Assembly: GCA_000091205.1 (NCBI GenBank)
Contig: AP006500.2
Strand: one strand, 5' to 3'
DNA: 64,000 bases
Source of the DNA: Cyanidioschyzon merolae
Taxonomy: Eukaryota
Shown: piece after piece, positions 1 to 36,661 of the stretch
Position numbering within the stretch: the first letter of the stretch is position 1
Layout: each line of letters starts with the position of its first letter
Position numbers and translations under genes: made by a program
Notes under the pieces: generated by a model
Databases searched by the model: none
Seen by the model: the letters and a program-made list of their open reading frames with translations, nothing else
What the model was told of the DNA's origin: nothing

Positions 1-4
1 TGCT

Positions 5-997: not shown

Positions 998-1910
998 AGC
1001 GTTCGACATCGCTATGTGCGTTGAGATACTTGACCTGGGACTCGCACACATGGGCACGCGTGAGCGACTCCGCGTGTCCCATAGAGATATGTATCCAAGC
1101 CGCCTCGATCCTCGAGAGGATCATCTGGTTTGCGACTCGTGTTCCTTGCCGTTCCCTTTGAGTATATACCCGCTATTCACATGTTATGCTTCGTATGCTG
1201 CGCTACAATGTTTCCCCTTTGGGTGTTCGTGGCTGCATCGATTTTCGCCATAGCGCGCCAGGGCGCAGGTGGGCGCGCGGGCTCGTTCGGAACGTCAACG
1301 AGATGCGTTTCCCAGCTTCGCGTCGCCGACAGCAGCAGTGTCCGAGCGAACGGCGCAGCTGTTACAGCATTAGCTTTGGCGTCAGTTGCTCGCTCAAGTT
1401 CATGTTTTTGAATCACTGAGTCCCCGTATGGGAGCGCCACGGGCGGCTGTCCGCATCCTGAGGACTTGCACGAGGCAACGTGCCTGCCGAGCGTCACCGA
1501 GTCTGCGTCCGTCTGGAGCATACCTAGGGCATCTGTATCCCAGAGATGGGCGTATCTCGTCGGGACCGTCAGCCGCCGGTGGTATCCGAACGATCCACTG
1601 GATGGCAACGCGAGGAGTGCGTCTCGACGACACGCAACGCTTGACGGTAGCTGCACTGCCGCACTCGGTCTCTTTCGTTGTGTGCAGCGCCCCGATTCTA
1701 CTCGGCATTGAGAACATACGCTAATCTAACGATGGCATTAGCTGGCAATGGTCATACCAAACGATGCACCCGTGCGCGGTTTCGTAGAAGCGGCCGCAAG
1801 CGAGCGATTACCGTGATGCGCTCCCGGTTCACATCGAGCGTCACATGCCTGGTAATGCGCCTGGTACCGATGATGCGTATCCGAATCGTTTCAGCGTCGG
1901 GGTCTAGATT

Positions 1911-3501
1911 GGTGTCAGCATAAAATGGAGCAGGTCCACGAATACTGGCTAGCTCTCTAAAAAATGGGCCTCTTCTCCTGGCCGTCAGCGCCAGCCACTG
2001 TGGGATTTTTCCGTGACTGCTTCTTGTTTTATGTTTCTTGTATCTGAAATGAAAAACCGCGGTCTGTCCTTTTACTCTAGATCGGTTGTCACTAGTCGAT
2101 GGATATTGAGGAACACGTCCAAGCGCCGATGTGGCCGATTCAAGCTGTTATCGACGAATATCATAGACACTCGATCGTTGTGAGCTACGCTTCACTCGCC
2201 ATTTTCATGTTATTTATACAGAGCCCCAGTGCGTCCTTCGCGGCGGTGGCGCTTAACTCTTTTCAGATGTTCCTATACGCGCACCAAACATCCGCGGGCT
2301 TCTCCTCCTTCTTCTTCGAGCACCGCCACGTGACACGGGAACGCTTGCTTCGTCCCTAACCACACGAACTTGACGGGTAGCGTGGGGTTCCTTCGATGTC
2401 TCACTCCGTTTCCGCGCCTCAGTGCTGTACCCTAGGATGACGGGCGTCGTCGTCGGCAATCTCCTCGGCGAGTGTGCTGTTCGCAGGACACGAAAGCGTA
2501 GGCTGCCCCATTCGGCTGCGGATTTGTGGAACGCGATATTGACCATGACGAAACAGTGTCTGGAAGGAAACCCGGGCCTGACGAAGCACTCGAGAGATCC
2601 AGTTCCATCTACGCTCCGTTCGTGCAGCGGATTTGTGGAACGCGATACTGACCATGACGAAACAGTGTCTGGAAGGAAACCCGGGCCTGACGAAGCACTC
2701 GAGAGATCCAGTTCCATCTACGCTCCGTTCGTGCAGCGGATTTGTGGAACGCGATATTGACCATGACGAAACAGTGCCTGGAAGGAAACCCAGGCCTGAC
2801 GAAGCACTCGAGAGATCCAGTTCCATCTACGCTCCGTTCGTGCAGCGCGGTGAAGCAGCCTCCGATAGAAGCGATCGCTGCGATAACGCAAGTCCGAGTC
2901 CAAGACACTTCTCCATGCAAACCGAAGACACGCGGGCCTCTACGAGCATACCCCGTGCAGCGTCGCACGCTGTTGTTGGCTCGCGCTCCACCGATAGCGT
3001 CAAAACGGGTAGGAATTGTTGTTCGGTCGATTTCAGCTAATGGAGGCGACAAGGTCAGTGAGCTTACGTTATGAGCTTGTACATACGACGTTCAGGGACA
3101 GCATCGACTTTTTCGTTTCCACGTCAATCCACCAGCGCCAACGCCTGCACCAACGAGTTGCTTTGAACGAGAACGATCGAAAACTTGAGCAGTGTCTGTG
3201 CTGCGAGCCTGCTATACGTCGGGCAAGGACAGGTGCGGCGGCTTGTACGCATGCATCGAATAACGATATCCGTTATTTGAGGAAGCCTTGTCTGAGGGCG
3301 TCGCGAATCGTCTCGACCCCAGTGCCGTCACGAATTCCAGCAACGACGAATTGAACGGGAGACACTGCAACAGAGACCGACCGAGACTCCTACAACTGCG
3401 TATCGGTTCGTATGCTCTTATTGCTGAACTTCAAATGTTGAGGCCGTGCTTCTAAAAAATCTTCGGAAAACTATCGAATGGTTAGAATGGAGCGAGCGGC
3501 T
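1911..3501. repeat. left arm of large inverted repeat (1591 bp)
   Basis: The reverse complement of 4442-5814 matches base for base, with about 1 mismatch per 200 bp in the stretches I compared. The outer end is ggtgtcagcataaaatggagc. The inner end is ggagcgagcggct. Confidence 0.9.
2518..2846. repeat. 109-bp tandem repeat, 3 copies, inside the left IR arm
   Basis: gatttgtggaacgcgata recurs at 2521, 2630 and 2739, giving a 109-bp period. Units differ by 1-3 nt. This explains the three near-identical overlapping ORFs in the track. Confidence 0.9.
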
Positions 3502-3529
3502 CAATGCTCTCTATTACGCCGAAACGACT

Positions 3530-4201
3530 CTAAAAGACGCACGTATTAGCTGCTGCTGTACCATCGGCCGAGGCAAAGCGCGTCCGAAGTTGTTCCCATA
3601 CTGCCGCTCTTTCCGATGAGACATCACCAACCGGACTGAGAAACATACTCAGTACCACCTCCTCGCCTGCCTTCTCGTGCCCGAGCAAGCGAATGATGTA
3701 TGTCGGTGTCGAGGGATCACCCCGACTGACGCCCTGTTCAAAACGCGCCGCACGAACGCCGCTGAGAAGAATGTGTAGATCCATGTTGATCGATAAGTCG
3801 ACGACGTTGGCGTAGAGGCCTCGGCGTGGCACCTCAGCGTAGAAGAGTTTCTCGAGGGTTGCGGTCGACTCAAGCACAACCGCCGCGTTCGTCGCGATAA
3901 AACGCAATTCGCCTAACTCCTTGCATGCTTCCAAAAACTCCACAAGACGAGGAAACTTTCCTGCAGCTTGGTCAACCGTCAACCGTCCGGGAGCTTGCGT
4001 TGCCATGCGCACAACGCTTCCCGTGCGCGCACGCCTTCGAACAGGGCGTGCGGCAGCCAGCGACGCGCTGTTCCAGGGCAGCAAACGCGTCCCATGAACG
4101 AGATCACGGTACACTGCCGCACAATGTAGTGCAGTATGTGTGCACCCACTAGATCTTGTGCGTTCTTCAAGCCTCAGCCTATTCAAGCCAGTGACAAACA
4201 T
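3530..4201 (-). CDS. small protein with ChuX/HutX-like (haem-utilisation/haem-binding fold) C-terminal domain and a transit-peptide-like N-terminus
   Basis: ATG at 4199-4201. The 223-aa ORF is the only ORF in the unique spacer of the IR. The pattern ELGELRFIATNAAVVLESTATLE...GLYANVV...DLHILLSGV...TPTYIIRLLG...VVLSMFLSP resembles my recollection of ChuX/HutX. The function call is weak. Confidence 0.45.
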   Translation of the reverse strand: MFVTGLNRLRLEERTRSSGCTHTALHCAAVYRDLVHGTRLLPWNSASLAAARPVRRRARTGSVVRMATQAPGRLTVDQAAGKFPRLVEFLEACKELGELRFIATNAAVVLESTATLEKLFYAEVPRRGLYANVVDLSINMDLHILLSGVRAARFEQGVSRGDPSTPTYIIRLLGHEKAGEEVVLSMFLSPVGDVSSERAAVWEQLRTRFASADGTAAANTCVF

Positions 4202-4441
4202 CGCTGGAGTTGATCGCAGTCCAAATGGAGATCAGCGAGTGCTGCAATCGATGTCAGCGCCGCTCGCGTTCCATCTTCGCAGGAGCCGTAGAGGAAATCG
4301 TACATGAATGTATATCTAGGGACAGTAATGGACATGAGCGCCTTCGCCCGATGCCGAGTCTCCAGCAGGGCCGGAGGGTCCGTGACGCACCGTCACTGTG
4401 ACGCGCACGTGGAACGCTAGACACACTCAGATGGAAGATGC

Positions 4442-5814
4442 AGCCGCTCGCTCCATTCTAACCATTCGATAGTTTTCCGAAGATTTTTTAGAAGCACGGC
4501 CTCAACATTTGAAGTTCAGCAATAAGAGCATACGAACCGATACGCAGTTGTAGGAGTCTCGGTCGGTCTCTGTTGCAGTGTCTCCCGTTCAATTCGTCGT
4601 TGCTGGAATTCGTGACGGCACTGGGGTCGAGACGATTCGCGACGCCCTCAGACAAGGCTTCCTCAAATAACGGATATCGTTATTCGATGCATGCGTACAA
4701 GCCGCCGCACCTGTCCTTGCCCGACGTATAGCAGGCTCGCAGCACAGACACTGCTCAAGTTTTCGATCGTTCTCGTTCAAAGCAACTCGTTGGTGCAGGC
4801 GTTGGCGCTGGTGGATTGACGTGGAAACGAAAAAGTCGATGCTGTCCCTGAACGTCATATGTACAAGCTCATGACGTAAGCTCACTGACCTAGTCGCCTC
4901 CATTAGCTGAAATCGACCGAACAACAATTCCTACGCGTTTTGACGCTATCGGTGGAGCGCGAGCCAGCAACAGCGTGCGACGCTGCACGGGGTATGCTCG
5001 TAGAGGCCCGCGTGTCTTCGGTTTGCATGGAGAAGTGTCTTGGACTCGGACTTGCGTTCTCGCAGCGATCGCTTCTATCGGAGGCTGCTTCACCGCGCTG
5101 CACGAACGGAGCGTAGATGGAACTGGATCTCTCGAGTGCTTCGTCAGGCCCGGGTTTCCTTCCAGACACTGTTTCGTCATGGTCAATATCGCGTTCTACA
5201 AATCCGCAGCCGAATGGGGCAGCCTACGCTTTCGTGTCCTGCGAACAGCACACTCGCCGAGGAGATTGCCGACGACGACGCCCGTCATCCTAGGGTACAG
5301 CACTGAGGCGCGGAAACGGAGTGAGACATCGAAGGAACCCCACGCTACCCGTCAAGGGCGTGTGGTTAGGGACGAAGCAAGCGTTCCCGTGTCACGTGGC
5401 GGTGCTCGAAGAAGAAGGAGGAGAAGCCCGCGGATGTTTGGTGCGCGTATAGGAACATCTGAAAAGAGTTAAGCGCCACCGCCGCGAAGGACGCACTGCG
5501 GCTCTGTATAAATAACATGAAAATGGCGAGTGAAGCGTAGCTCACAACGATCGAGTGTCTATGATATTCGTCGATAACAGCTTGAATCGGCCACATCGGC
5601 GCTTGGACGTGTTCCCCAATATCCATCGACTAGTGACAACCGATCTAGAGTAAAAGGACAGACCGCGGTTTTTCATTTCAGATACAAGAAACATAAAACA
5701 AGAAGCAGTCACGGAAAAATCCCACAGTGGCTGGCGCTGACGGCCAGGAGAAGAGGCCCATTTTTTAGAGAGCTAGCCAGTATTCGTGGACCTGCTCCAT
5801 TTTATGCTGACACC
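4442..5814. repeat. right arm of large inverted repeat (1373 bp; single copy of the 109-bp unit at about 5097-5208)
   Basis: It is the reverse complement of 1911-3501 minus two 109-bp units (218 bp, which is exactly the length difference). ORFs 5366-5626(-) and 4589-4927(-) mirror 2099-2359(+) and 3016-3354(+), each with 2 aa changes. Confidence 0.9.
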
Positions 5815-6049: not shown

Positions 6050-8740
6050 TCACAAATGCGGATGCTCTGATGCAGCATTGCGACGCTTGTCTCGCGATTG
6101 TTGAGTCGCTTCGGGAACTTGGGTCAACGATACGGGCGCCTCGTACATACTCTGCGCAGCGCCGGTTGGCAGGAGTCCTGCTGACTCCGCTGCGAGCGCA
6201 TCGAGCGACTCTGCCTCTGACGAAGGCTGAAGCGCACCTGACGCTGCTGCGATGAGTTCCTGAAACAACGCATCCAGGCTGTTTTCAGCCAGCATGCGGG
6301 GTCGTAGTTGTTCGACGCGCTCCGAGGACACCAGTCCGGCAGTGAGCAGTGCATCGAAGACAGACATATGTAACGTCGAGTCCACTGGGGCATCGGGCGA
6401 CGTCTGCTCAGGCGAAGAGATCGCAATAAGTGGCTCGCTGGCGTCCTCGTGCTTGTCAGCGGGTGCTGCAGCCACTGGAGCTGTCGTCGTTGCTGATGCC
6501 GTTGTTTCACCGAAAAACAGAGCTAACGAGTCCGCTGCGGGTACCGGATTCGTTGCCACTGGCGCTTGCAGCTCGGTGCTTGTGTCTTGGTGCTTTTCAG
6601 CAGCCTGGTGCTTCGATGCCTCGGTTGACGGTACCAAAGGCAGCGACACATGTAAAAGGTTCGCATTTTCCGGCAGACATGAGGAAAACGTCGCTCCCGC
6701 GGAAGTGCACGCACTCCATGCGCAGAGCAGACAGCCGTTCGTCCATGCACTGGGCACAGCGAATGCTACCGCATCTCGGTTTCTCAGTGCATCTATGGCG
6801 TCTGTGCGAACGTCATCCACTATTGAGGAGGTTCTCAGTGGGGCACACTGCGGATGTGCTGCGGCGGCTTCCGCAGTACCTGCTCGAGGCGTTGGGTCGG
6901 TGTCAATGAGGGTCGTACTCTGCGCTACGCGCGCTTCCATGGTATCCATTACGCTCTCTGGACGAACCGAAATCTTATCGAGCGATTGTGCGCACTCCAC
7001 CGCGTAGCTCAGAACATCTACATCGTCATCTTCGAGGCCAGCGACCAGCAGGCTATTGAGTGCGCGCCAAGCTCGATCCGTGGATGTCCTTCGCGCCGCG
7101 AGCGTTCGAGCAAGACGTAGCAACTCGAGGCGCACTGGTGCAGCCAAGAGCAATCGATGCTGCTGCTGTTGCTGCTGCTGCTGCATCCATCTTCGCAGCA
7201 CCTCGTCGGCGACAGTCCCAATATGATCGATCATCGTGCCTACGATCCAGAGAAAACGACTTTGTGTCGGCGAGTCGGACTCGATCCATGCCGCATTGAG
7301 CACAATCTCTTTTAAGAGATTTTCTGCTTGACTTATGCGTTCCCGAGGCGTCGTCCGTAGCGCTCCCACTGTCATGCGCAGCAGCAGAAGGCCAACAGCA
7401 CCATAGACTGACGGCGATACGACGCTTCGGCTGCGCCAAATGTCGATGAGTTGCGGAATAGCGGCAGCACTGCTTACCGGATGCACTGCTGCCATTAAAG
7501 CCAACGCACGTGCTGCCATAATAGCAAGCTCTTCGCCACGGCACTTCAACAGCGGCACTAGCCGATCCATAATCGTGATGCACAGCGTCTCCTCGAATTC
7601 GACAAGTTTCACCAGGATGCCCAGCTGATGGCGATACACTGCCGGTTCATCAGTGCCGATCGTCGGCACAAACAGGGGCGCGTACCTTGTCAAACACGCT
7701 GGTTCACGCCACGCGAGCACGTGCAGCATTCGCAGGGCCAACACTTTCAGGCCGCTCTCGTGATCCAGCGCGTAGCGAAGCAGCGTTCGCACCACCGTCT
7801 CCGTGACGTCGTTATCGCTGGAGCGCCTCAAATGGTACAGCGTTAGCGCACCGCTCACAGCGACCGCTGCCGACAGGGACTCTACAGCTTTCCTGGCGAG
7901 TCGGTCGACGGCTTGCACAAAGCGGGTAAGCTCTTCACCGCAGAGTGTCTCTGTCATTCGCTCGGGCCGCGTTGTAGTACGCAGTAGGACGTAGCGCAGC
8001 AGCTGATGCAGTGCTATCGGGAGCAGGTTCCCCGGAATCGTCTGGTACTCTTCATCTAGTCGCTCGACCAGCGACACGGGAATGTTGAGCATTGCATCTC
8101 GATCTAGCATGCCCAGTGCTGCAGCAGTTGCAACCAGTACGGGTGCTTCCCGGTCATTTAACAACAACTGCCACAGAGGTGCCGTCAACGCCGAAGCAAT
8201 CTGCTCAACAGGCAGCTGGTGGAGGCTTTGCGCAGGCTCCGCACCGTCGGGCTCGTTCCACGTTAGCACTGGTGGGATACTCAGGGCTGCGGTGAGTCGC
8301 ACTTGCGGATGACGGTCCCGCACACCGCGGTGAATCGCCAACCACATAACCTGGCGTAGAGCGGGAACACGTAGCGAAGTCAGTAGGCGGAGCGCCTGAC
8401 TCCGCACCCAAGGGTCATTGTGCTGCAGGTCCTTAAACAACGCGTTAACCGCCAAGAGGACCAAATGCGGTTCGTCGTCCGCATGCTGCTGCAGGAATAT
8501 GCACACCAGTCGTTTCAGTTCATAGTCTGCTTGCAGCAGATTGCTCACCACGGCGGGTAGCAACTTGGCTACGGGCTGGCCCTGAACGCTGAGCGCTAGC
8601 ACTCTCTTCAGCGCTTCCCTGCGAACCTGTGCGTTGCCCTGTTCAAGCTGGAGTCGTAAAAGTGCCCAGTCTGTGTTCGCATCGTCCAAGTACGAGGCGT
8701 CTGTCCAGTTGCCCGCTAACTGAGACGCCAGCGTTGTCAT
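6050..8740 (-). CDS. adaptor-protein complex beta subunit, AP-3 beta-like (adaptin N-terminal HEAT/ARM domain)
   Basis: ELKRLVCIFLQQHADDEPHLVLLAVNALFKDLQHNDPWVRSQALRLLTSLRVPALRQVMWLAIHRGVRDRHPQVRLTAA fits the beta-adaptin N-terminal signature. The first ATG is at 8738-8740 (the track ORF begins at GTG 8782). TGA stop at 6050-6052. The C-terminal third is low complexity. Confidence 0.75.
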   Translation of the reverse strand: MTTLASQLAGNWTDASYLDDANTDWALLRLQLEQGNAQVRREALKRVLALSVQGQPVAKLLPAVVSNLLQADYELKRLVCIFLQQHADDEPHLVLLAVNALFKDLQHNDPWVRSQALRLLTSLRVPALRQVMWLAIHRGVRDRHPQVRLTAALSIPPVLTWNEPDGAEPAQSLHQLPVEQIASALTAPLWQLLLNDREAPVLVATAAALGMLDRDAMLNIPVSLVERLDEEYQTIPGNLLPIALHQLLRYVLLRTTTRPERMTETLCGEELTRFVQAVDRLARKAVESLSAAVAVSGALTLYHLRRSSDNDVTETVVRTLLRYALDHESGLKVLALRMLHVLAWREPACLTRYAPLFVPTIGTDEPAVYRHQLGILVKLVEFEETLCITIMDRLVPLLKCRGEELAIMAARALALMAAVHPVSSAAAIPQLIDIWRSRSVVSPSVYGAVGLLLLRMTVGALRTTPRERISQAENLLKEIVLNAAWIESDSPTQSRFLWIVGTMIDHIGTVADEVLRRWMQQQQQQQQHRLLLAAPVRLELLRLARTLAARRTSTDRAWRALNSLLVAGLEDDDVDVLSYAVECAQSLDKISVRPESVMDTMEARVAQSTTLIDTDPTPRAGTAEAAAAHPQCAPLRTSSIVDDVRTDAIDALRNRDAVAFAVPSAWTNGCLLCAWSACTSAGATFSSCLPENANLLHVSLPLVPSTEASKHQAAEKHQDTSTELQAPVATNPVPAADSLALFFGETTASATTTAPVAAAPADKHEDASEPLIAISSPEQTSPDAPVDSTLHMSVFDALLTAGLVSSERVEQLRPRMLAENSLDALFQELIAAASGALQPSSEAESLDALAAESAGLLPTGAAQSMYEAPVSLTQVPEATQQSRDKRRNAASEHPHL

Positions 8741-17563: not shown

Positions 17564-19168
17564 TCTTGGAACGTCAAGTCATCCGGAGGGACTAGTTGAT
17601 CTGGTTTCGTGCTTGCTGGCTGTGCGGGCATATGCAGGAGGCCGCAATTGATGCATCAACCCCACAGCATGAGAAAAACACTCCTGGATGCAACAGCGGA
17701 AGTGACCATTCTTACTCGTAGGCAAGCGCGCAGAGATGTCGTTCAGGGATTTCGGATCGTCGACGCTGACTGCGAATCCCCGATGAAGCGATTGATATCC
17801 GCGTCCATCATTGCGCATCGCACTGTGAGGCGTCACCAATCACCACCTTTGCTTCTCTTCACGTATACTAGTCCGCCAGTTCGTGTGATGCTGTGTGGTG
17901 CCGACTGCCTACCCTGAGCGCCGACGAGGACGTACACGGTGCCGCAGCGGATGCTGCACGGAGGCAAAGCGGCTTCGCCATACCCGTGAGAACGTCGGCT
18001 CTAAATGTGGTTTATTTGACGCGTCGTCAGGTATCTCCCTCATGTCGTGCCCTGACAGTCACTGTATGCGGACCTGACTTTACATCAAGATGCGTTGCAG
18101 AAAAGAAGCTGTCAGGAGGAATCCTGAAAACCCCGAGTCTTCGCTTCCCTGTATTGGGAGGCATGCAATGCGGTCTTGCGACTCGGGGGCCATTGCGCTG
18201 CACTCAGCAGCCAGGAGATGCACGAAACGCCGGGCGCGCATGTTCATGCAGTTCGCGGCTCTTTTTCGCCTAGAAAGACGAATAAGAGTTTGGTGCCAGA
18301 TAGCGCGCATTTTGGTCCAACCAGTGGGCCTCCAATTGTCAGTTCTGCACCCAAAATAAGCGAACGCTCATGAGCATCTATAGTGACATCCACGAGGTGT
18401 GATTGCTCGAACAGCCAGCTTCGTTCCTGTGTCCGAACGCGAACACTGCAAAAGCGAGTCTCGCCGAGCATTGGGAGTTACGTCTCCCCTGCAGAAGCAG
18501 TATGATTCCCTGCGAGCATGTAATTTTTCGATGCAACACAAGGCCCGGACGTGCTAGACTTCACCGATTCGCTCTTTAGCGAGCCAGACGGTTCCCATGG
18601 GAACCTCTGACCACCCCAATGACTCCCGCCAAACGTTTCATGTCTCTACTCGGTGGTTCTTCTAATGGGATGCGAGGCCAACGTTGAAGATCCTGTTCTT
18701 TCGAAATCGGCATTTGCATTCTTTGCCTTGAACCGTTCGTTAGAGATGTCGAGAAAAGAGTCAGTCCCAGAAACCAACTGGTATATATCCACTCCAAAGC
18801 CATACTTGAGGAAAATCTGCCTCCACTAGACCCAAACGCTTTTTCGATACCTTGGGATGCACGCCATCATCCGGTTGAGCCGGGGGCGCGTGCTGGGCCT
18901 CTTGGCCCTTGTACGACGCGCTGCAGTCTGCTGCAATGACTTCCAACGGGGGTGTATAGGATTTACATCCGAGAGCTTCCGTGCTGGGTGCTCTGCCGAG
19001 CATCCCGACACGATTCGCATCGACCTGTTGACTGGGGTCTGCATTCGCGAAGCGAGTGCGAGGCTCATGCCCCACCATTCGACGCCCCAGGTGACCGCCT
19101 TGATGATGCACATCCTAATTGACCCGATGCAGACTCCCAGCGACATCCCTATGGGTCCGATAAGAACC

Positions 19169-19450
19169 TGCATGCACGAGCTGAGCGTTTCTTGATCTTG
19201 GCAATCTCCTCTCCTATATATACACACTTTCATCCAGTGTGCATGCACGAGCTGAGCGTTTCTTGATCTTGGCAATCTGCTCTCCTATATATACACACTT
19301 TCATCCAGTGTGCATGCACGAGCTGAGCGATTCTTGATCTTGGCAATCTGCTCTCCTATATATACACACTTTCATCCAGTGTGCATGCACGAGCTGAGCG
19401 TTTCTTGATCTTGGCAATCTTCTCTCCTATATATACACACTTTCATCCAG
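19169..19450. repeat. 71-bp tandem repeat, about 4 copies, each containing tatatatacacac
   Basis: catgcacgagctgagcg recurs at 19171, 19242, 19313 and 19384. Units differ by 1-2 nt. The array ends 136 bp upstream of ATG 19586. Confidence 0.9.
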
Positions 19451-19585
19451 CATCGACGTGAGTTGTACCAGGGCGCGGCGGGATTCGGCGTTGCCTCGCG
19501 AGCATCGCACTATCCGAAGATCGGCACTCGAGCTGCGCGTCCGAGGTGCTCCACAGCAGCTTCTAAGGTTCTGGCACAGCCTACG

Positions 19586-20728
19586 ATGCGTATGGAACAG
19601 CCAGCAGCGTTTCTGAGTGGCAAACTACAACCCTTGTGCCTAGATCGCAAGTTCCAGTTGCGCGTGAGCGGGTCACGGCAACAGTTTCGGGGCCGCCGCC
19701 GACCCATTCTCGTCGCCCGGGTCGGGATCGGCGTCATCGGTGCAGGCCGCATAGGACAGGTACATGCAGCAACGATAGCTCGTCTGATGAATGCAGAGCT
19801 ACGAGGTATTGCTGATCCAATTGAAGCAGCTGGGCGTAAGGTGGCCGAGAGTTTCCAGACAGCGTACTTTCCAGACTATCGTACGCTGCTAGAGGACCCC
19901 GATGTACAGGGTGTCGTCATCGGCTCGCCAACGCCGTTTCACGCGGAACAAATGATAGCTGCAGCCGAAGCCGGCAAGCATATATTTTGTGAAAAGCCTA
20001 TCAGCAACGATCTCGCGACGATCGACCGTTGTTTAGAGGTGGTACGCACCAGCGGCGTCAAACTCCTGGTGGGGTTCCAGCGGCGCTTCGATAGTAACTT
20101 TAGCTACGTACGTGACCAGATTGAGCGTGGCACCATTGGGCAAGTGCGTATGTTTCACATCCATTCAAGAGATCCGGCGCCACCTCCGGCGGAATACTTG
20201 GCGAAAAGCGGAGGTATTTTCCTCGACATGTGTTCCCATGATTACGATATGGCGCGTTTTGTGACGGGCCAGGAAATCGAGGAGGTTTACGTGGTTGGCA
20301 AGGCCTTCGATCCCGAGGCACAGGCCGCAAATGATCTCGACACCCACATAACGGTACTGCGGATGTCGGGCGGGGTCATGGGCACCATCGACAACTCTCG
20401 TCGTTGCGCATACGGCTACGACCAGCGTATCGAGGTGTTTGGCTCCGACGGTTCGTTAATCGGTCAAAACAAGAGCAAGCACTCCGTAGTAGCCGCCGGT
20501 CAAGATGGGTATCATCATGGACGACCTTTTGATTTCTTTATGGATCGCTATCTGGAGGCGTACGGGAACATCATGACCGCATTTGTGCAGATGATCGAGC
20601 GCGGCACAGACCCCCCTGTCTCGGGGTTAGACGGTCGCGCGCCGGTGCTCGCTGCGCTGGCCGCAGCCCGAAGTGTCAAGGAGAATCGACCAGTGAAACT
20701 CAGCGAAGTCGATATACGCATGCGCTAG
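19586..20728 (+). CDS. Gfo/Idh/MocA-family NAD(P)-dependent oxidoreductase (myo-inositol 2-dehydrogenase-like)
   Basis: Rossmann motif IGVIGAGRIGQVHA, conserved FCEKPIS, then LLVGFQRRFD and GGIFLDMCSHDYDM. The first ATG is at 19586 (track start is TTG 19463). N-terminal extension of about 45 aa. Confidence 0.85.
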   Translation: MRMEQPAAFLSGKLQPLCLDRKFQLRVSGSRQQFRGRRRPILVARVGIGVIGAGRIGQVHAATIARLMNAELRGIADPIEAAGRKVAESFQTAYFPDYRTLLEDPDVQGVVIGSPTPFHAEQMIAAAEAGKHIFCEKPISNDLATIDRCLEVVRTSGVKLLVGFQRRFDSNFSYVRDQIERGTIGQVRMFHIHSRDPAPPPAEYLAKSGGIFLDMCSHDYDMARFVTGQEIEEVYVVGKAFDPEAQAANDLDTHITVLRMSGGVMGTIDNSRRCAYGYDQRIEVFGSDGSLIGQNKSKHSVVAAGQDGYHHGRPFDFFMDRYLEAYGNIMTAFVQMIERGTDPPVSGLDGRAPVLAALAAARSVKENRPVKLSEVDIRMR

Positions 20729-23760: not shown

Positions 23761-25038
23761 TCAGTCTTCGATTCGTGCTTTCCGATCCATCCATTCCTCG
23801 AGCTTCTCTCTCGGACTTTGACGATTTTCTAGGACGTCGATGACGCCTAACAGAATCGGAAACTTCAACGCTCGTCTCATGGGGTTCAAGTGCGGAAACT
23901 GCCTTTCAATGAGACTCGCAACTGCCTTTGCCGTCGGCACGCCTTCAGCGACCTGACTCGAAGTCTCTAAAATATGAGCAAGGGTTTCACCCTGACCCAG
24001 GCGGTAGCCAACCGTTCTGTTCCGACTGCTCGTGCCGAAGCAGGTCATAAACGTATCGCCTACGCCACTGAGGCCGGCCACAGTCACCGGACGAGCACCA
24101 AAACTCCGCGCAAGGCGCCGCATCTCCGAGCAGCCGCGAGTCACCAGCGCAGCTGTCGCGTTCATACCGAGACCAAGTCCCTCGCAGATGCCGGCAGCAA
24201 GGGCGATAACGTTCTTCACAGCGCCACAAATTTCAACGCCAACAACGTCGCTCGAGCGAAATACTTTCAGTGCTGGTGAGCTAATAGCGGCTGCAATACT
24301 CGCACATGCAGCAGCGTCATGCGAGGCCAGGACGACGGCTGCCGGAAGATCGGCCAACATCTCATGGGCGAAAGAGGGTCCCGAGAGAAACATGCATGGC
24401 ACCGGACGCTCTTTACCGAATACGTCGTCGAAAATCTCGTACATAAAGTTGCCTGTGCTAACCTCAATACCCTTGCTTGTGGACAGAATCGGTGTTCCGG
24501 GCGCCAAATTCGGGCGAACGCTCTCCACGAGAAAAGCTCTGCTCGCTTGGACCGGCACAGCATGAACACATAACCAGCAGCCTTTCAGAGCATCTTCGGG
24601 GTCCGTGGTCGCTCGAACAAGCTTTGGAAACCGGAAGCCTGGAACTAACGCAGTGTAGCGAGGGTTTGTGCGCTCCTTGTTGATCGTCTCTGCGACCTCC
24701 GCTCGACGAACAAGCAGCACAACCTGGTGACCATTGTTAGCCAAGGCAAACGCCATAGCGCTCCCAAAAGAGCCGCCGCCACAGATCGCTACGTGTCGAG
24801 CTTCCTCTTGGCTCTGCCCAGACAATCGTGCGTGCGTAGGTGGAACCTTCCGCCTCACAGACCGCCGCCCATAACTGGGGTCAGCAGAAGGGCGTCGCCA
24901 CAGCGTCACAGAAAAGGCGGTTTCCGTTCGAGCGGATCCTGCGCCCTCGAAGCCCCTAGCCAATGAGATGGCACAAGTGAACGCACTCGAAACAGACCTC
25001 GTGCTCTGTAGCCGCGGCACAGTTTGCTCAGGCTGCAT
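23761..25038 (-). CDS. NAD(P)H-dependent glycerol-3-phosphate dehydrogenase (GpsA type) with about 90-aa presequence
   Basis: VAICGGGSFGSAMAFALA, LSTSKGIE, GAVKNVIALAAGICEGLGLGMNA and GLSGVGDTFMTCF..SRNR.VG. ATG at 25036-25038. TGA stop at 23761-23763. Confidence 0.9.
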   Translation of the reverse strand: MQPEQTVPRLQSTRSVSSAFTCAISLARGFEGAGSARTETAFSVTLWRRPSADPSYGRRSVRRKVPPTHARLSGQSQEEARHVAICGGGSFGSAMAFALANNGHQVVLLVRRAEVAETINKERTNPRYTALVPGFRFPKLVRATTDPEDALKGCWLCVHAVPVQASRAFLVESVRPNLAPGTPILSTSKGIEVSTGNFMYEIFDDVFGKERPVPCMFLSGPSFAHEMLADLPAAVVLASHDAAACASIAAAISSPALKVFRSSDVVGVEICGAVKNVIALAAGICEGLGLGMNATAALVTRGCSEMRRLARSFGARPVTVAGLSGVGDTFMTCFGTSSRNRTVGYRLGQGETLAHILETSSQVAEGVPTAKAVASLIERQFPHLNPMRRALKFPILLGVIDVLENRQSPREKLEEWMDRKARIED

Positions 25039-26019
25039 GAGCTACTATCCTGCATCGGAACGAAGGACGCTCACCCGCGGTAGTGTCGCGCTTCTGATCC
25101 GCGCAGGCGCGTAAGCCGGCAGGAGTCGTTGCTGCATCGAGTTTTTTTCGATGACAGAGCGTTTCCATTGACCATGAATCCCCAATAGCGGGATGGGTAC
25201 TACGATTCATGTAATTCTCCATCATGACGCAACCTATCTCCAAGTTCCATTACCCATATTTCCTCTCAGGTATACTGGTCTTTTCCTTTGTTCTATCGTA
25301 TGCCAAGTGCCTGCAGTGAGCACCCACCGCAGCGCCTAAACCGCTTGTGCGGATGCTACACGGAGACAGAGTAGCTTTGTCATACCACTGAGGGCGTCGG
25401 CTCGAGGAATGCTACACCTGACACGGGATCAGGGCTACTTATCATTCTGGGAGTCTGGAAGCTGCGCAGGCAGGCGTACTGCCTGCGGCAGCGCAGAGCG
25501 ATATTCTTCGAGGACACCACGACCAGCGCGACGCCCAGACGCAGCATACCGCTCTGAGTCCCAGAATAAACTGCATTGCGGACGAGTTGCTCAGATCTCT
25601 CTGCATGACCAGGCTCCGAGAGGTCTATGAAGCACGAGCCTGGGAGAATCGTCCGACTCGCGGGACATTCCGCCCAGAAGGTAAACTTTCGTCAATATGG
25701 AAATCTTTGCTCCCCATGAATTTTTATCATTGACAGGGAAGGCAATTGTTATCTCGCTGCCAGTCAGTAGTGAGTCTCTGCTCTTCGTTCTATAGAGTAC
25801 AGTCGATAGGCGCACCCAGGAGATCTGCCAGGCACGAGGTACGACGTGGATATCGCCATTGAAGAGAAACGCGATCCTGATCATTAGCATGTTGTATACC
25901 GTACAAGGTGTATTTGCGTTGAAGTCGTAGCAACGTTTAGTCTTCAGTTCAGTTGTGTTCCAACCCCAAAGCAAGTATATACGAGCGATTTTTCGTGGTT
26001 TATAGCAGAAGCGTTCAAA

Positions 26020-28263
26020 GTGTGTTCTTTTTCGAAAATAAAAAAGGAAAGTTCTGGACGAAGAAGTGGAGGATCCTGGAGGCACGGTGTCGCCAGGTGG
26101 CGAAAAGAACGAAAAATAGTGCCGAGCAAAGATGAACAGGAGAAGAAGAAGAAGAAGCGAGAGCCAGACCTCAACGGCTGCAAGAAAGGCGACAGCATGA
26201 CGAGATGATAGTGAACGCCTGCCTTCTTGGATGTATCAAGGATCCGTACGAGCAGAAGATGCGAGAGACCACCAGAAGCCGTGTCGATTCCTACTCCAGG
26301 AGCGTGCGTAACACTTCTTTTTGGACTGAAGCATACGGTGAAGGAGATATACGATGACCTTACCGACACGAAAACAGTCGAGGTTCCGGAAGCGTTTTTT
26401 TTAACAAGACCCTCAGCCGCCACTTGATGCTTGGCACAGGGGGACGTCGAGGGAAAATGAGCGCATGTGCGTCCTCCATGAAAAATACCCCTACTAGGGT
26501 CTCAAAGGTACTCGTTACAGGGGTGACTCGCGTATTTTCGAATACAGGGCAAAAAAGTATCTCACGAACCTGAACAACCATATGATCATGAAGCTCGAAC
26601 GTTTCATGACACGCTCCATCGTTGCGCGCTACCCGGGCCTCTCTCGCAAAGGGATACGGGCCATCATCAATGGCGTCAGGAACGATAGTAAGAATGAACA
26701 GGAGATCGAATTCCTCGACGAGAAGACATCACACAGGAGAACGAATGAAGCTTCTGCAATCCGTACGGCAATTCAAGAGCACCGTCCGGTCTCGGAGCTG
26801 GTCAATCCAGCAGGAAATGTATCAGGTATGGAAAAAGAAAAGCAAAGATGTTATCCCCTAATCCTGCGCTATTTCGTGTGTTTGGACCGCGAACTCGATC
26901 CCAAGGCCAATATGGAGCTGGGTGTGGAACAAAATGTAGAGTCAGAGAAACGGAAGGGTATCCTAACGGGTAAGCGCTTTAGCGTTGTTGCGTTATGCAT
27001 CACCAAGTTCCATTTTGTAACAATCGACTCCAGAGTCCTCAACGGCATCATGAAGGAGGTCTGTCTGGAGTTCGATGTAAGGAAGATAGAGTTCACCAGT
27101 GAAAACCGGGAGACGTACTGGAAGAATATCTTCAATTTCAAACGTCTCAATACGTGCAAGCAAAAGGTATTCACTGGCATCATCGAAACCGATGGAGTAG
27201 CCATGTGTGTACACTCTCGGCGCTTGAAGGCAGATCGTCCAGTTCCGTCCTCGACTGCGCCCGTGGCGAAGCATGAAGAAAACAAGGAGGCTGGCCTTAC
27301 AACGCAGGAGGTACAGGAGAACGATTTTGTTGTTGGCACGGACCCTGGGAACACGAATATCGTAACCATCGCAGTACCCAAGCGTGCGGAAGATGATATC
27401 GACGGCAACTTACGTCAGAAGGACATCCGTCTTTGAAAGCTCACGACAGCTACATCTTACCGAGAATCAGGAAAACTGAATGCAAGGAAAAGAAATGAGA
27501 CGTGGAATGCAGGAGTGAAAGAGCACAAGGCAGCGATCAGCCAGGTGACGAGCCGAGGAGCGGACTTTGAAGCTTTTCGAGAGTTCATGAAAGTCCGCGC
27601 TGCTCTTGACGAGCCGCTGTCGAAAGAATCTACAAAGCCCCGGTGGGCTCGTCTGCTTAGAATCTTGTACTTTGGGAAGCAGCACGCATTTGCCAACTTC
27701 TTCAATGAGTTGAGCGCTCTCAAAGAGGACAAAATTCAGAGACTCGTGGTGGTATACGGAGCAGGGCATTGGATGACACGGAAAGGTAGCACACCAGCTC
27801 CATCGACACGAGCGTATAAGGAGTGCACACTGTGCTTCGTCATGATGTCGATAGATGGGTTCCGAACGTCGTATACATCCACCATGAGCTAGGGTGTGTA
27901 CTTGAGAGTGTCGAGATGGAAAAGTGCCAGCAGAGCACTGAGGATGTAGCAAACTACGGAGCGCTGACAGAGCACCTAACGGCATGGAGGGTGCGAGTTC
28001 GAGGTCTACTTCCGTTGGTGAGTACAACCAATGCCAAGAAACATATGAAATTCGTGAACCGAGACTTCAATGCCGCCAACAGTATAAGCAGATAGGCGGT
28101 GCTGGAGAAGAGGCCCCCAGAGTTGACCAGAGCCAACTTTCTGGGGCAACCTCTGCAGATGGCGCTGTACGAGAAGAAGCTGAAGCCAGTAGTAAATGGC
28201 CGGTCCAAAAACCCTGGGAGAATTCTGCACGCTGGCGTATATACATCAACGCTATCGGCTTGA
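26020..28263 (+). pseudogene. TnpB-like / Fanzor-type RuvC nuclease, copy 1, near full length but disabled
   Basis: Ordered motifs are [16 protein letters not shown] (Asp 27341-27343), QRLVVVYGAGHW..KG.TPAP and SIDGFRTSYT (Gly 27857-27859 where copies 2 and 3 have Glu). They are followed by KFVNRDFNAANSI (Asp 28063-28065). Lesions are TAG 26495-26497, a frame change at the T-run near 26395-26405, TGA 27437-27439, a +2 nt insertion at 27878-27879 and TAG 28093-28095. The 5' limit is uncertain. Confidence 0.75.
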
Positions 28264-33655: not shown

Positions 33656-34370
33656 ACACGTAAAGTGAATACCCTCAAGATGCCTGCTATCGTCCGCTGC
33701 GGCATTCTCCAAAGCGCGTATCCGCTTGTCGTGGACGCGAATACTGCGTGTCGGCGCTGCAGTTCCGGGACGGCCGCAGGGCCCGCAAGCGCGACACGCC
33801 TCGCTGGCGCGTTCCCGCTGGTAGCTGTCAACGCGAGCTTGTCGTGGGCTTCTCTGCCCAGAGCCGCTGTTATCGGAACCCGGGTTACGGTACTCAAGTG
33901 CGGACAGTGCAGGCAGGGGTCCGCCTAGGTCTGCAACGAGTGCCGCACTGGTCGGCGCCCGCCAGTTCAGATTCGAAGCACATGCCGAAGCGCGTCAGTG
34001 TCACCAGGTCGCTATGAAACGCCAGTGACACTCTCTCCAGATCCAGATACCCAAGTGAGTGACTTATGCTCCTTCAGCGAGTGTCAAGTTCCCGGTGCAT
34101 AAGCTTGCCGAACTGGCGCAGCATGCATCCTGCCAGATGGAAGCAGTTCGATGGTTCACGCTCGCTAGCCTGACGGATCATCTGTAGTCTTTTGTACATA
34201 CCAGGTTTGCAGCCCAGCGAGCCTGGATTCCGATGAAGCACTCGACCGCGATAGCGTACCAGGTCGTCTATTGCAGAGCACGACTTGCATCGATTCTGGA
34301 ATACCGCCACCAAACGCCGTTCGAAAGTCGAACGACGCCAACGGTGTACAGTAGTGGCGAGTGACCCGCC

Positions 34371-35400
34371 CTAGACAAGACGTCTCCAAGTGACGTGCAG
34401 ACGCCATCCGATCTTTCTCGACCGGCCACCTACGACTACTGCTCCCAACTTCTTCTCATATAGTTCGACTTTTGGAGGTTGTTCCACAAAGTTCTCCCGT
34501 GTCAACTCTGGAGGTCTCGTCTCTATCACCGCACATCTCCTTATATTGGTAGCGGCATTAAGGTCTCGGTTCACAAACTCCATACGTTTCTTGCAATCAT
34601 TGGTTGTACGTACTCATGCGAGTAGCCCTCGAAGTCTCGCTCTCCTTTCCATTTGCTCCTCCGTCAGCGGTCCATACTTTTTTATATCTTCAGGGCTCCG
34701 CTGACACTTTTCCATCTCCACTGTCTGAAGTGTACACCCCTGTTCATGGTGTGTATACGAGGTTCGGAACTCATCTACAGGTATCGTAACGAAACGCCGT
34801 GCGCCCTCCTTGTACGTTCTTGTCGTTGGAGCTGGCGTAGTCCCTTTTTGGGTCTTCCATCGCCTTGCTCCGTACGCTACGACGAGCCTCTGATTTCCAT
34901 CCTCCTTCAGGTCACTCAACTGATTGAAAAAATTCGCGAACGCCCGCTGCTCCCCACAATACAAATTCATTCGCAAACGAGCCCGCCGGGGCTTGGTATA
35001 CTCCTCCCACAGCGCATCCCAATGGGCAACGCGAACTTTCATGAATTTCCGAAAAGCTGCAAAGTCCGCGCCTCGTCTAGTCACCTCGCTCAAAGCTTCC
35101 AGGTGCTCTTTCATTCCTGAGTTCCAAGTCTCGATTTTCTTCCTCGCATTCATTATACCGGATTCTCGATAGTATCTTGCTCTCGAGAGCCTCAAAAGAC
35201 GCATGTCTTTCTGACGTAAGTTACCATCAGTCCCATCTTCCGCACACTTTGGTACAGAGATGGTTATGATGCTCGTATTCCCAGGGTCCGCGCCAACGAC
35301 AAAGTCGTTATCCTGCACCTCCTGCATCGCAGGATCCGCATCATTCTCATCTACATCCTTCGCCAGGGGCGAAGCCGAGGACGGACCAGGAAGCGGGCCC
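34371..35400 (-). pseudogene. TnpB-like / Fanzor-type RuvC nuclease, copy 2; the N-terminal half is missing and there is one in-frame TGA
   Basis: DFVVGADPGNTSIITI (Asp 35286-35288), QRLVVAYGARRW, PVDEFRTSYTHHEQGC (Glu 34770-34772) and EFVNRDLNAATNIRR (Asp 34563-34565). ORFs 34614-35327 and 34371-34583 are in the same frame, separated only by TGA 34614-34616. Homology to copy 1 runs upstream to about 35400 (GPLPGPSSASPLAK vs [12 protein letters not shown]) and then stops. Confidence 0.75.
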
Positions 35401-35401
35401 G

Positions 35402-36323
35402 ACGGCGCTGGAGGTGCAGAAGAACGCGTTTGTCGTTGGCGTGGATCCCGGGAACACCCACATCGTTACCATCGCAGCACCCAAGCGTGAGGAAGATGGC
35501 TCTGTCGGCAACTTACGTCAGAAAGACATAAGTCTGTTGAAGCTCTCATGAGCGAGATATTACCAAGAATCCGGTATAATGAATGCGACGGAGAAAAGTG
35601 AGACATCGAACTCAAGAGTGAAGGGAATTTGGAAGCGATCAGCCGGGTGACGAGCCGCGGAGCCGACATTGAAGCGTTTCGAGAGGTTATGAGCATTCAC
35701 GCAGCTGATGACGAGAGCTTTTGGAAAGAATGCACAAAGTTCAGGTGGGCTCGTCTGCGTATGAACCTGTACTGTAGGAAGCAGCGAGCATACGCCAGCT
35801 TTTTCAATCAATTGAGCGCCCTCAAGGAGGACATGAGCCAAAGGCTCGGAGTAGCATACGGGGCAGGGCGCTGGATGACCCAAAAAGGGTGTACACCAGC
35901 TCCAACGACAAGAACGTACAAGGAGTGCGCACATCGTTATGTCGAAATACCTTTAGATGAGTTTCGAACATCTCATACACACCACGAGCTGTGTTGTACA
36001 CTTCAGAGGGTCGCGATGGAGAAAAGCCAGCGGCTCGCTGACGGAAATGCAAATAGCAAGGAGGGCGAAACTTCGAGGACTACTCGCTTTGGTTCGTAAA
36101 ACTAATGATAGGAAGAAACGAATAGAGTTCCTGGACTGAGACTTTAACGCCGCCATCAGTATAAGGAAATGTGCAGTACTGGAAAGAAGACCCCCGGAGT
36201 TGGCGAGAGCCAACTTTGCGGGGCAACCTCTTAAAATGGAGTGATACGAGAAGAAGTTGAAACCAGTAGTAGGTGGCCAGTTGCTGAACGCCAGCACAGT
36301 CGTCTGCACATCATTGGGTAGAC
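35402..36323 (+). pseudogene. TnpB-like / Fanzor-type RuvC nuclease, copy 3; the N-terminal half is missing and it is heavily disabled
   Basis: AFVVGVDPGNTHIVTI (Asp 35444-35446), QRLGVAYGAGRW, PLDEFRTSHTHHELCC (Glu 35959-35961) and EFLD*DFNAAISIRK. In the last motif the Arg codon of NRD is TGA (36137-36139). Further stops lie at 35549-35551 and 36242-36244. There are frame changes near 35620 and near 36030. Confidence 0.7.
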
Positions 36324-36661
36324 AATCGGTCTACGGCGGACGGTGTGAGAAACGCCACCATTGTACACTGGCTTTCCAGCGTTTCTCTTTTGCAAGGCGT
36401 TTGGTGGTGTTTCCAGAGACGAATTGTTTACCAAAAACGTCTTCTATCGATCTTCGAAACCAACGTGCTGCTTCCTCTGTGCGGCACGGGGCGTACGCTA
36501 TGCGCTTTTCTGCTGATTGACAGCGGAAGCGACGAGTCCGGTTACTGCCTTGAAGACTTTGACGCTTTGGAGAGACCATCATATCGATGGTTTCAGTTTT
36601 CTGACCTCCTCCTAACCACCACGCTCGGATCTCTGTTGCAACGGCACGCGCAGCAGCTCTC

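Follow-up and report, generated by a model that had tools for sequence, protein, structure and literature searches.

Relics of the Fanzor1 transposon CMe-1A in Cyanidioschyzon merolae and a putative Fanzor1 clade without the four-cysteine zinc ribbon

Introduction

Does a nuclease-like segment that lacks the glutamate and the zinc-binding cysteines at their usual places record an unusual enzyme or merely a decayed one? This question is raised by a 64-kb stretch of DNA from the red alga Cyanidioschyzon merolae (contig AP006500.2 of assembly GCA_000091205.1, referred to as the window), in which positions 34563-34790 of the minus strand encode the portion of a TnpB/Fanzor-like RuvC domain that spans RuvC-II to RuvC-III. 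The segment extends from V-T-I-P-V-D-E-F-R-T-S to the Asp codon of an NRD motif (34565-34563) and translates as ...VTIPVDEFRTSYTHHEQGCTLQTVEMEKCQRSPEDIKKYGPLTEEQMERRARLRGLLA*VRTTNDCKKRMEFVNRD. It belongs to copy B (minus strand) of three related copies that were detected in the window by tblastn and blastn, with copies A and C on the plus strand and a between-copy nucleotide identity of 72-76%. A preliminary description made from the sequence alone had interpreted these copies as a TnpB-type nuclease with a non-canonical active site and zinc ribbon. The assignment to this type of nuclease is borne out by the profile and fold matches to Fanzor1 proteins reported below. The encoded family is very probably a Fanzor1-type RNA-guided DNA endonuclease with the standard triad of Asp, alternative Glu (Ealt) and Asp, and with a TNB domain devoid of zinc cysteines, of which only dead copies are present at this locus.

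The window copies belong to CMe-1A

The transposon CMe-1A and its protein CMe-1 were described from C. merolae by Bao and Jurka (Mob DNA 2013, 4:12), who assigned CMe-1 to Fanzor1. They reported approximately 150 copies, each ~80% identical to a ~3-kb consensus and without terminal inverted repeats (TIRs), and provided the consensus DNA (3169 bp) as well as the CMe-1 protein (734 aa) in their Additional files 2 and 3. The protein reads ...RLVVAYGAGRW...VDEFRTSYTHHELGCTLQRVEMEKCQRSPE...RGLLALVSTTSDGKKRMEFVNRDFNAAINI and holds LVVAYGAGRW...VDEFRTSYTHHELGCTLQRVEMEKC verbatim. The window copies display the same motifs, i. e. LVVAYGAGRW, VDEFRTSYTHHELGC, MEKCQ, RGLLALV and FVNRD, at a protein identity to CMe-1 of 58-84%. 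No convincing TIRs were found around copy A, where short inverted repeats occur at chance level only. Since the copies are 77-88% identical to the consensus DNA, and copy number, divergence and the absence of TIRs fit the 2013 description, the window holds three relics, one almost full-length and two truncated at the 5' end, of the published CMe-1A, an old TIR-less Fanzor1 family of cyanidiophycean red algae. In contrast to the consensus, all window copies are inactivated, and the two truncated ones are arranged head-to-head. Both the family and its active-site layout were already known.

Fanzor1 membership and fold

Homologues were collected in two ways. A protein search against 5.8 billion sequences returned 103 homologues, and an exhaustive profile search against 1.84 billion cluster representatives (50% identity clusters) returned 5048 relatives, 625 of them below 1e-30. 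From the latter, 107 diverse top-scoring relatives with a mean column identity of 21% were aligned. Intact homologues (P0072, P0077 and P0087-P0102) are only 30-43% identical to the window clade and CMe-1, and each cluster of homologous proteins comprises between 1 and 35 sequences, in most cases 10-30. When a profile of 15 homologues was compared with the PDB, it matched PpFz1 (1.2e-13), SpuFz1 (2.3e-12) and also GtFz1 from WED/REC through RuvC. In addition, AlphaFold2 models of P0002 (predicted local distance difference test score (pLDDT) 84.4, predicted template modelling score (pTM) 0.82) and P0087 (pLDDT 95, pTM 0.90) were compared with the Fanzor1 structures of SpuFz1, PpFz1 and GtFz1 solved by cryogenic electron microscopy (8GKH, 9CEU-9CEZ, 9CF0/1 and 9CER). 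Both models matched these over their full length (E 1e-13 to 1e-20, template modelling (TM) score 0.5-0.72). Strong fold matches were obtained only with Fanzor1 structures (E 1e-16 to 1e-20, TM ~0.7), those to TnpB and Cas12 being far weaker, and the best match of P0087 was SpuFz1 (E 1e-20, TM 0.71).

Most of the sequence and fold features by which Fanzor1 proteins are recognized are found here: a eukaryotic (or giant-virus) genome, the DPG of RuvC-I, a Gly together with an alternative Glu, the RD of RuvC-III (xNRDxNAAxNI), and an architecture that comprises WED, an enlarged REC, a RuvC domain with extended helices and TNB/NUC in the models. Among these features, the four-cysteine (C4) zinc finger is lacking, both in the window copies and in CMe-1. 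As all other sequence and fold criteria and the classification by the original authors point to Fanzor1, it is the C4 definition that is too narrow rather than the membership that is wrong. With SpuFz1, PpFz1 and GtFz1, the CMe-1 clade shares the fold (TM ~0.7 to SpuFz1), the DPG Asp, the Gly that ends β4, the Glu after β5 and the RD Asp. In contrast, SpuFz1 and PpFz1 have kept the ribbon (...DEYKTSSVCPRC...GLLGCTNPNC in SpuFz1), whereas the corresponding positions are His/Leu/Leu/Asn (or Tyr/Asp/Tyr/-) in the CMe-1 clade. The elements differ as well, as SPu-1 transposons carry TIRs of 30-33 bp and CMe-1A has none.

A separate eukaryotic family that derived from TnpB, is unrelated to Fanzor1 and converged on the same motif order might explain why the Pfam TNB model barely detects these proteins. 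In a Pfam scan, neither the repaired protein nor any of eight homologues matched PF07282 above the threshold (E 0.2-0.6), and PF26935 was not reported; the family has its own entry under this accession (PF26935/DUF8286). Yet the full-length fold matches extend to three different Fanzor1 structures, the profile matches to Fanzor1 chains run from WED/REC through RuvC, the discoverers placed CMe-1 in Fanzor1, and relatives with all four cysteines (CCCC) and the same motifs link the clade to ordinary Fanzor1 proteins. An independent origin is scarcely credible in view of this evidence and is effectively refuted by the fold and profile matches.

A glycine on β4 and a relocated glutamate

The preliminary description had read the β4 strand, on which TnpB carries its RuvC-II glutamate, as LVV(A/V)YGA without an acidic residue in all copies. 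The acidic residue is indeed absent from all three, but copy C reads LGVAYGA. It had further singled out the Glu of DEFRTS, ~35 residues downstream, as the only conserved Glu in the vicinity. This residue is located 33 positions after the Gly of YGA in copies B and C; in copy A, it is replaced by Gly (IDGFRTS), and a second fairly conserved Glu (YKEC/YKEG) is found 21 residues after the YGA Gly. The layout with Gly and downstream Glu recurs in the CMe-1 consensus protein and in every one of the 46 homologues, intact or partial, that span it.

By residue counting and profile alignment to the PDB, taking into account an offset of 394 for the fusion to maltose-binding protein, the Asp, Glu and Asp of the family fall on D383, E541 and D606 of SpuFz1, which coordinate Mg (Saito et al. 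2023, Xu et al. 2024), and the YGA Gly falls on G505. The latter corresponds to G500 in the numbering of Bao and Jurka (2013), who pointed out the extreme conservation of G500 and E536 in Fanzor1, i. e. the same two positions as the Gly and Glu of this family. Among the 107 aligned relatives, strict invariance is confined to the DPG Asp, the Gly of YGA, a single Pro, the Glu of DEFRTS and the Asp of NRD (D484, G623, E656 and D725 for the Asp, Gly, Glu and Asp in P0002 numbering), while the Pro and Gly of DPG are conserved in at least 90%. This invariance and the alignment with E541 lend support to the catalytic role that the preliminary description had ascribed to the DEFRTS Glu. In P0002 as modelled by AlphaFold2, G623 ends β4 at the canonical RuvC-II Glu site and E656 lies in the loop directly after β5. 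The active site would accordingly be assembled from the DPG Asp on β1, the DEFRTS Glu just after β5 and the NRD Asp at the start of the last helix.

An hhalign comparison with ISDra2 TnpB (using a sequence identical to 8BF8_A) aligned DEFRTSYTHHELG with PYFPSSQLCHDCG (probability 79%, E 1.5e-5). The family Glu is thereby placed at Y324, six residues before C331, the first ribbon Cys. Fanzors are characterized by DPG in combination with an Ealt six residues upstream of the zinc finger position (Yoon 2023, PMC10711439), and the Glu of this family, as judged from the alignments, fits that definition exactly. In all Fanzors, the canonical Glu is replaced by Pro or Gly and the alternative Glu is used instead, the latter being essential in ApmFNuc according to mutational analysis (Jiang 2023, PMC10530073). 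Since both studies report this arrangement for Fanzors in general, the relocated Glu is the Fanzor norm and no distinguishing feature of the CMe-1 family. The relocation, the defining feature of all Fanzors, had itself been correctly recognized in the preliminary description.

In the canonical ISDra2 TnpB (8BF8/8EXA/8H1J), the motifs follow each other in the order found here, D...(T/S)(T/S)xx[ribbon]...RD, but the protein carries D-hydrophobic-G instead of DPG, E278 on β4 (IIGTEHL) and a Tyr in place of Ealt, and its CxxC...CxxC ribbon is intact. The TnpB2, pro-Fanzor and RIIr-5 TnpBs resemble CMe-1 in the replacement of the canonical Glu by Gly or Pro and in the Glu six residues before the zinc finger position (Jiang 2023; Yoon 2023; Altae-Tran 2023), yet they are prokaryotic, much smaller and retain the C4 zinc finger.

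The loss of both the canonical Glu and the zinc finger could also be taken as a sign that the clade has become catalytically inactive and was exapted, for example, as an RNA-guided DNA binder like the TnpB-derived regulators. Many inactivated and exapted TnpBs are known (Altae-Tran 2023), and CrFNuc-1, a Fanzor1 protein, did not show cleavage in the study of Jiang 2023 (PMC10530073). However, the two Asp and the Ealt remain invariant in 107/107 sequences in spite of the low overall identity, SpuFz1 and ApmFz2 are active with this very combination of Gly and Ealt, and the genes are multi-copy and transposon-borne rather than single fixed host genes. Because of the invariant triad and the transposon-like copy numbers, an exapted, inactive clade appears very unlikely.

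Loss of the zinc ribbon

As had been noted from the sequence, the CxxC...CxxC ribbon is absent from the window copies and reduced to THHE.GC...EKC, with a Ser for the last Cys in copy C. The region reads IHHELGC...MEKCQ in copy A, THHEQGC...MEKCQ in copy B and THHELCC...MEKSQ in copy C. Both an acidic residue at the canonical RuvC-II position and an intact four-Cys ribbon that might have been overlooked were looked for in the course of the analysis, and neither was found. In relation to relatives that have kept the ribbon, such as P0208 (EDEFRTSKMCSSCGEEL...RGLRWCGSTKCRKFVNRD), the CMe-1 lineage has His in place of Cys1 and Leu in place of Cys2 (Leu in the CMe-1 consensus and P0002, Gln in copy B), retains the Gly, and has Leu in place of Cys3 (RGLLALV) and Asn/Asp/Ser in place of Cys4. 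It features two additional, lineage-specific Cys (in G-C and EKC) and an insertion of ~25 residues, predicted to form two helices.

A trivial explanation for these deviations would be mutational decay of three pseudogenes whose ancestor had the normal Glu and C4 ribbon. Stops or frameshifts are indeed present in all three copies; in copy A, even the Glu of DEFRTS is gone, and in copy C a Cys has been replaced by Ser. Nevertheless, the same layout is found in the CMe-1 consensus and in the distantly related intact proteins, it occurs in 93 of the 107 diverse representatives, and the Gly on β4 has no exception among them. Decay of the local copies can therefore be dismissed with near certainty as the cause of the odd motifs, and the absence of the ribbon is a trait of the family and its clade.

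The extent of this trait becomes apparent from the homologue sets. A four-Cys ribbon is found in 0/46 homologues that cover the region, and most members of ~600 aa have no Cys there at all. Among the 114 top representatives of the profile search, 101 miss a CxxC-type pair. The four canonical columns are occupied by Cys in 23, 14, 74 and 17 of the 107 aligned relatives, respectively. All four are present in 14 sequences, which form one cluster in a quick neighbour-joining tree of the 107-sequence set with midpoint rooting; Cys2 is absent from all other 93. This distribution fits a scenario in which the loss occurred once and the other ligands eroded afterwards. The four zinc Cys of the TNB/NUC mini-domain, located between the catalytic Glu and the last Asp, would then have been lost in the common ancestor of a large clade that extends over this alga, other eukaryotic contigs and giant-virus-like contigs. 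In the absence of the metal, the TNB domain probably folds as a small β-sheet: in the model of P0087, which has no ribbon Cys, this segment is a confident three-stranded sheet, and pLDDT values of the TNB region are ~90-97, including those of a member without ribbon Cys.

The viral part of this range is exemplified by P0094 (596 aa), an intact protein without ribbon Cys that is encoded at positions 252-2042 of a densely packed contig (L004; ENA ERZ27229618 k141_166177). The contig also codes for an Rpb6 subunit and an EsV-1-7 cysteine-repeat protein and is probably derived from a giant virus, so that the zinc-free clade appears to be common to protists and their viruses. The P0002 model additionally matches proteins of Tetraselmis virus 1, Homavirus, Hyperionvirus and Klosneuvirus.

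Rather than being lost, the zinc site could have been remodelled, with the His-His-x3-Cys and the EKC Cys of CMe-1 as new ligands, or, in proteins like P0072, a His, a Cys, the third Cys and a His before FVNRD. In support of this idea, THHE.GC and EKC together provide two His and two Cys that recur in most CMe-1-type copies, no residue is more frequent than His in the column of the first Cys (37/107), and 74/107 sequences have retained the third Cys. Moreover, P0072, P0077, P0084 and P0104, a sister lineage with ~43% identity to CMe-1, have a His directly before F(V/L)NRD. These four proteins also keep the first-position His and the third Cys (RGLLWC), a combination that the CMe-1 lineage does not have and that represents a possible residual or remodelled metal site of the sister lineage. 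On the other hand, the EKC Cys is situated at the tip of a β-hairpin at the base of the helical insertion, topologically far from the first knuckle, and it is not conserved in the sister clade. Tyr occupies the third Cys column in 16/107 aligned sequences, 16/114 representatives in a separate scan have no Cys at all in the region, and the second Cys is gone from every non-CCCC sequence. On account of this modelled topology, the poor conservation and the existence of members without ligands, a remodelled His/Cys site seems unlikely, although it is the least improbable of the alternatives considered here.

Loss of the finger in whole branches with conserved nuclease motifs has precedents in the TnpB clade RIIIr-4 and in Cas12 subtypes without a zinc finger (Altae-Tran 2023). 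These losses are independent and prokaryotic, and in RIIIr-4 RuvC-III is also rearranged, which is not the case in the CMe-1 clade. For Fanzor1, the C4 finger was called 'strictly conserved' by Bao and Jurka (2013), though their own CMe-1 sequence lacks it, and a later study states that 'many... contain a ZF' (Yoon 2023, PMC10711439). No prior statement of zinc finger loss in Fanzor1 was found in the text of the open-access literature. The distinct subfamily that the preliminary description had envisaged thus corresponds to a real and large Fanzor1 clade without the C4 ribbon, but it is set apart neither by the relocated Glu nor by novelty, given that CMe-1A had been published. What remains is a genuine, apparently unremarked and modest feature.

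Several points weigh against the interpretation as a family of functional, zinc-free Fanzor1 nucleases. All three window copies are dead, and hence there is nothing functional at the locus itself. That intact members cleave DNA, and that cleavage is independent of zinc, is what we infer from their sequences. AlphaFold ignores metals, so that the high confidence of the TNB models is no proof of a metal-free fold. The history of the clade was read from the quick tree described above. The hhalign match to ISDra2 spans only the C-terminal 52 columns (ribbon and RuvC-III); for this reason, G623 was equated with the canonical TnpB Glu position via strand topology, the SpuFz1 alignment and the literature. 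Finally, an earlier remark on zinc finger loss in Fanzor1 could exist outside the open-access text.

Structure of the CMe-1A copies in the window

The three copies and their motifs are compiled in Table 1. All are pseudogenes with stops or frameshifts. The first 630 nt of copy A match a leader like that of TE-N2_CMe, which has the CMe-1A 5' leader in common according to Bao and Jurka (2013), and the alignment begins at consensus base 1. The coding remnant of this copy is affected by frame changes near 26440 and 27877 and by in-frame stops at 27434-27436 and 28093-28095. Copy B consists of RuvC and TNB only, without the N-terminal half, and is 84% identical to residues 397-734 of the CMe-1 protein. 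Its open reading frame (ORF; 34614-35327, 237 aa) starts almost at the RuvC-I-like VGADPGNT and is ended by the premature TGA, beyond which the frame resumes as EFVNRDLNAATNI. Copy C likewise has no N-terminal half and contains several frameshifts; it reads LDEFRTS at the position of the alternative Glu, and its protein identity to CMe-1 is 58-76%. RuvC-I is present as VG(A/T/V)DPGNT in all three copies, and RuvC-III as FVNRD(L/F)NAA in A and B.

Table 1. Coordinates of the CMe-1A copies in the window and of their sequence motifs.
Feature	Position	Strand	Remarks
Copy A, near full-length CMe-1A	25149..28231	+	blastn, consensus 1-3087 of 3169, 82.4% identity
Copy A, Fanzor1 coding remnant (WED/REC + RuvC + TNB)	26172..28236	+	~70% identical to CMe-1 protein
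Copy A, RuvC-I VGTDPGNT (DPG Asp)	27332..27355	+	
Copy A, β4 LVVVYGA	27743..27763	+	Gly at canonical RuvC-II Glu position
Copy A, IDGFRTS	27851..27871	+	predicted alternative catalytic Glu replaced by Gly
Copy B, 5'-truncated CMe-1A	34315..35391	-	blastn, consensus 2093-3169, 88.2% identity
Copy B, RuvC-I VGADPGNT	35274..35297	-	
Copy B, β4 LVVAYGA	34866..34886	-	invariant Gly in place of canonical RuvC-II Glu
Copy B, VDEFRTS	34758..34778	-	predicted alternative (relocated) catalytic Glu, codon 34772-34770
Copy B, degenerate first zinc-ribbon half THHEQGC...MEKCQ	34701..34754	-	Cys1 replaced by His, Cys2 by Gln
Copy B, RGLLA followed by premature TGA (34614-34616)	34614..34631	-	consensus RGLLALV, Cys3 replaced by Leu
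Copy B, RuvC-III EFVNRDLNAA	34551..34580	-	Asp codon 34565-34563
Copy B, terminal hairpin CGTTCGA-ctt-TCGAACG	34318..34334	-	~40 nt after stop, just inside element 3' end
Copy C, 5'-truncated CMe-1A, head-to-head with B	35358..36399	+	blastn, consensus 2110-3169, 77.1% identity
Copy C, β4 LGVAYGA	35845..35865	+	
Copy C, RuvC-III with stop, EFLD*DFNAA	36125-36154	+	

The truncation points of B and C nearly coincide (consensus 2093 and 2110), the copies overlap by ~34 bp at 35358-35391, and together they form an imperfect palindrome of 2.1 kb (34315-36399) with arms that are 71.6% identical. The near-identical truncation points and the overlapping head-to-head junction suggest that a single ancient event, an inverted duplication or fold-back, gave rise to both copies instead of two separate insertions. 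The truncation falls within a repeat of the linker upstream of RuvC-I (window 35288-35391). In P0002, this linker (residues 379-469; ~7135-7410 of locus L005) comprises three to four tandem repeats of ~25 aa (ATQEVxDNDxxVDxxKHEExK), which are predicted to be disordered (pLDDT < 50) and whose number differs between copies. Besides the three copies, the 64 kb contain one fragment, a 100-bp segment at 17900-18001 with 74% identity to consensus positions 153-252. As this part of the leader is common to TE-N2_CMe, the fragment is probably a relic of a TE-N2_CMe element.

The 3' end of the element

Homology among the copies of the element stops 45-80 nt after the stop codon, and hairpins are located just inside this end. 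At the 3' boundary of CMe-1A, the hairpin reads CGTTCGActtTCGAACG, with a perfect 7-bp stem and a 3-nt loop, and is preceded by a second stem, CGCCAC...GTGGCG. A hairpin is found at the equivalent position in the homologous loci L005, L007 and L008, while the published CMe-1A consensus is degenerate at this site (GCGTTTTTCTTTTGAAAGGCG). An alignment of seven 3' ends contained the hairpins but gave no covariation support (covariation term +0.68), and an Rfam scan of 24-38 kb yielded no matches. Judging from its sequence and position, the terminal hairpin might represent the final stem of an omega-RNA scaffold or else a structure of the transposon end as in Helitrons.

Genomic surroundings

Genes near the copies encode TFIIA-gamma and a DEAD-box helicase, along with long intron-free ORFs, and the surrounding DNA is eukaryotic nuclear. 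The protein of the adjoining glycerol-3-phosphate dehydrogenase gene (GPD; 23761-25038, minus strand) was itself encountered only in metagenomes of the Joint Genome Institute (JGI); its best named match is from Cyanidiococcus yangmingshanensis (75%), ahead of those from Galdieria and further red algae. JGI metagenomes (3300050355-64, 3300005573 and 3300005861) are also the samples from which the homologue loci L001, L002 and L005-L009 originate. Elsewhere in the window, 1911-2629 and 5814-5096 form an inverted repeat of 99.3% identity, as do 2722-3501 and 5220-4442 (98.3%). This structure (1911-5814) carries internal direct repeats of ~110 bp at 2505-2847 and is much younger than the Fanzor copies. 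A tandem array of about four 71-bp units with ~98% identity (19169-19450) is located directly upstream of an ORF at 19463-20728.

Implications

For the window, the annotation is settled: the copies are what is left of an already catalogued Fanzor1 transposon in a red alga resembling Cyanidioschyzon, and the placement of their glutamate is that of a textbook Fanzor. Of broader relevance is the proposal that a large, hitherto uncharacterized Fanzor1 clade from cyanidiophycean red algae as well as other protist-like and giant-virus-like contigs has dispensed with the C4 ribbon and might yet encode active RNA-guided endonucleases. We advance this as a tentative reading of the sequences, for which the chances appear almost, albeit not quite, balanced. 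An intact C4 ribbon is part of several working definitions, namely the motif of Bao and Jurka, the regular expression of Yoon et al. and Pfam PF07282, all of which the CMe-1 clade fails. As its D-E-D triad is nevertheless invariant, any census based on the ribbon will arrive at too low a number of Fanzors. Should the clade prove active, Fanzors could function without the zinc finger that was called strictly conserved, and a sizeable part of their diversity would systematically escape searches by motif or Pfam model in which CxxC...CxxC is required. In that case, the clade would also provide a zinc-independent TNB domain for comparison and engineering.

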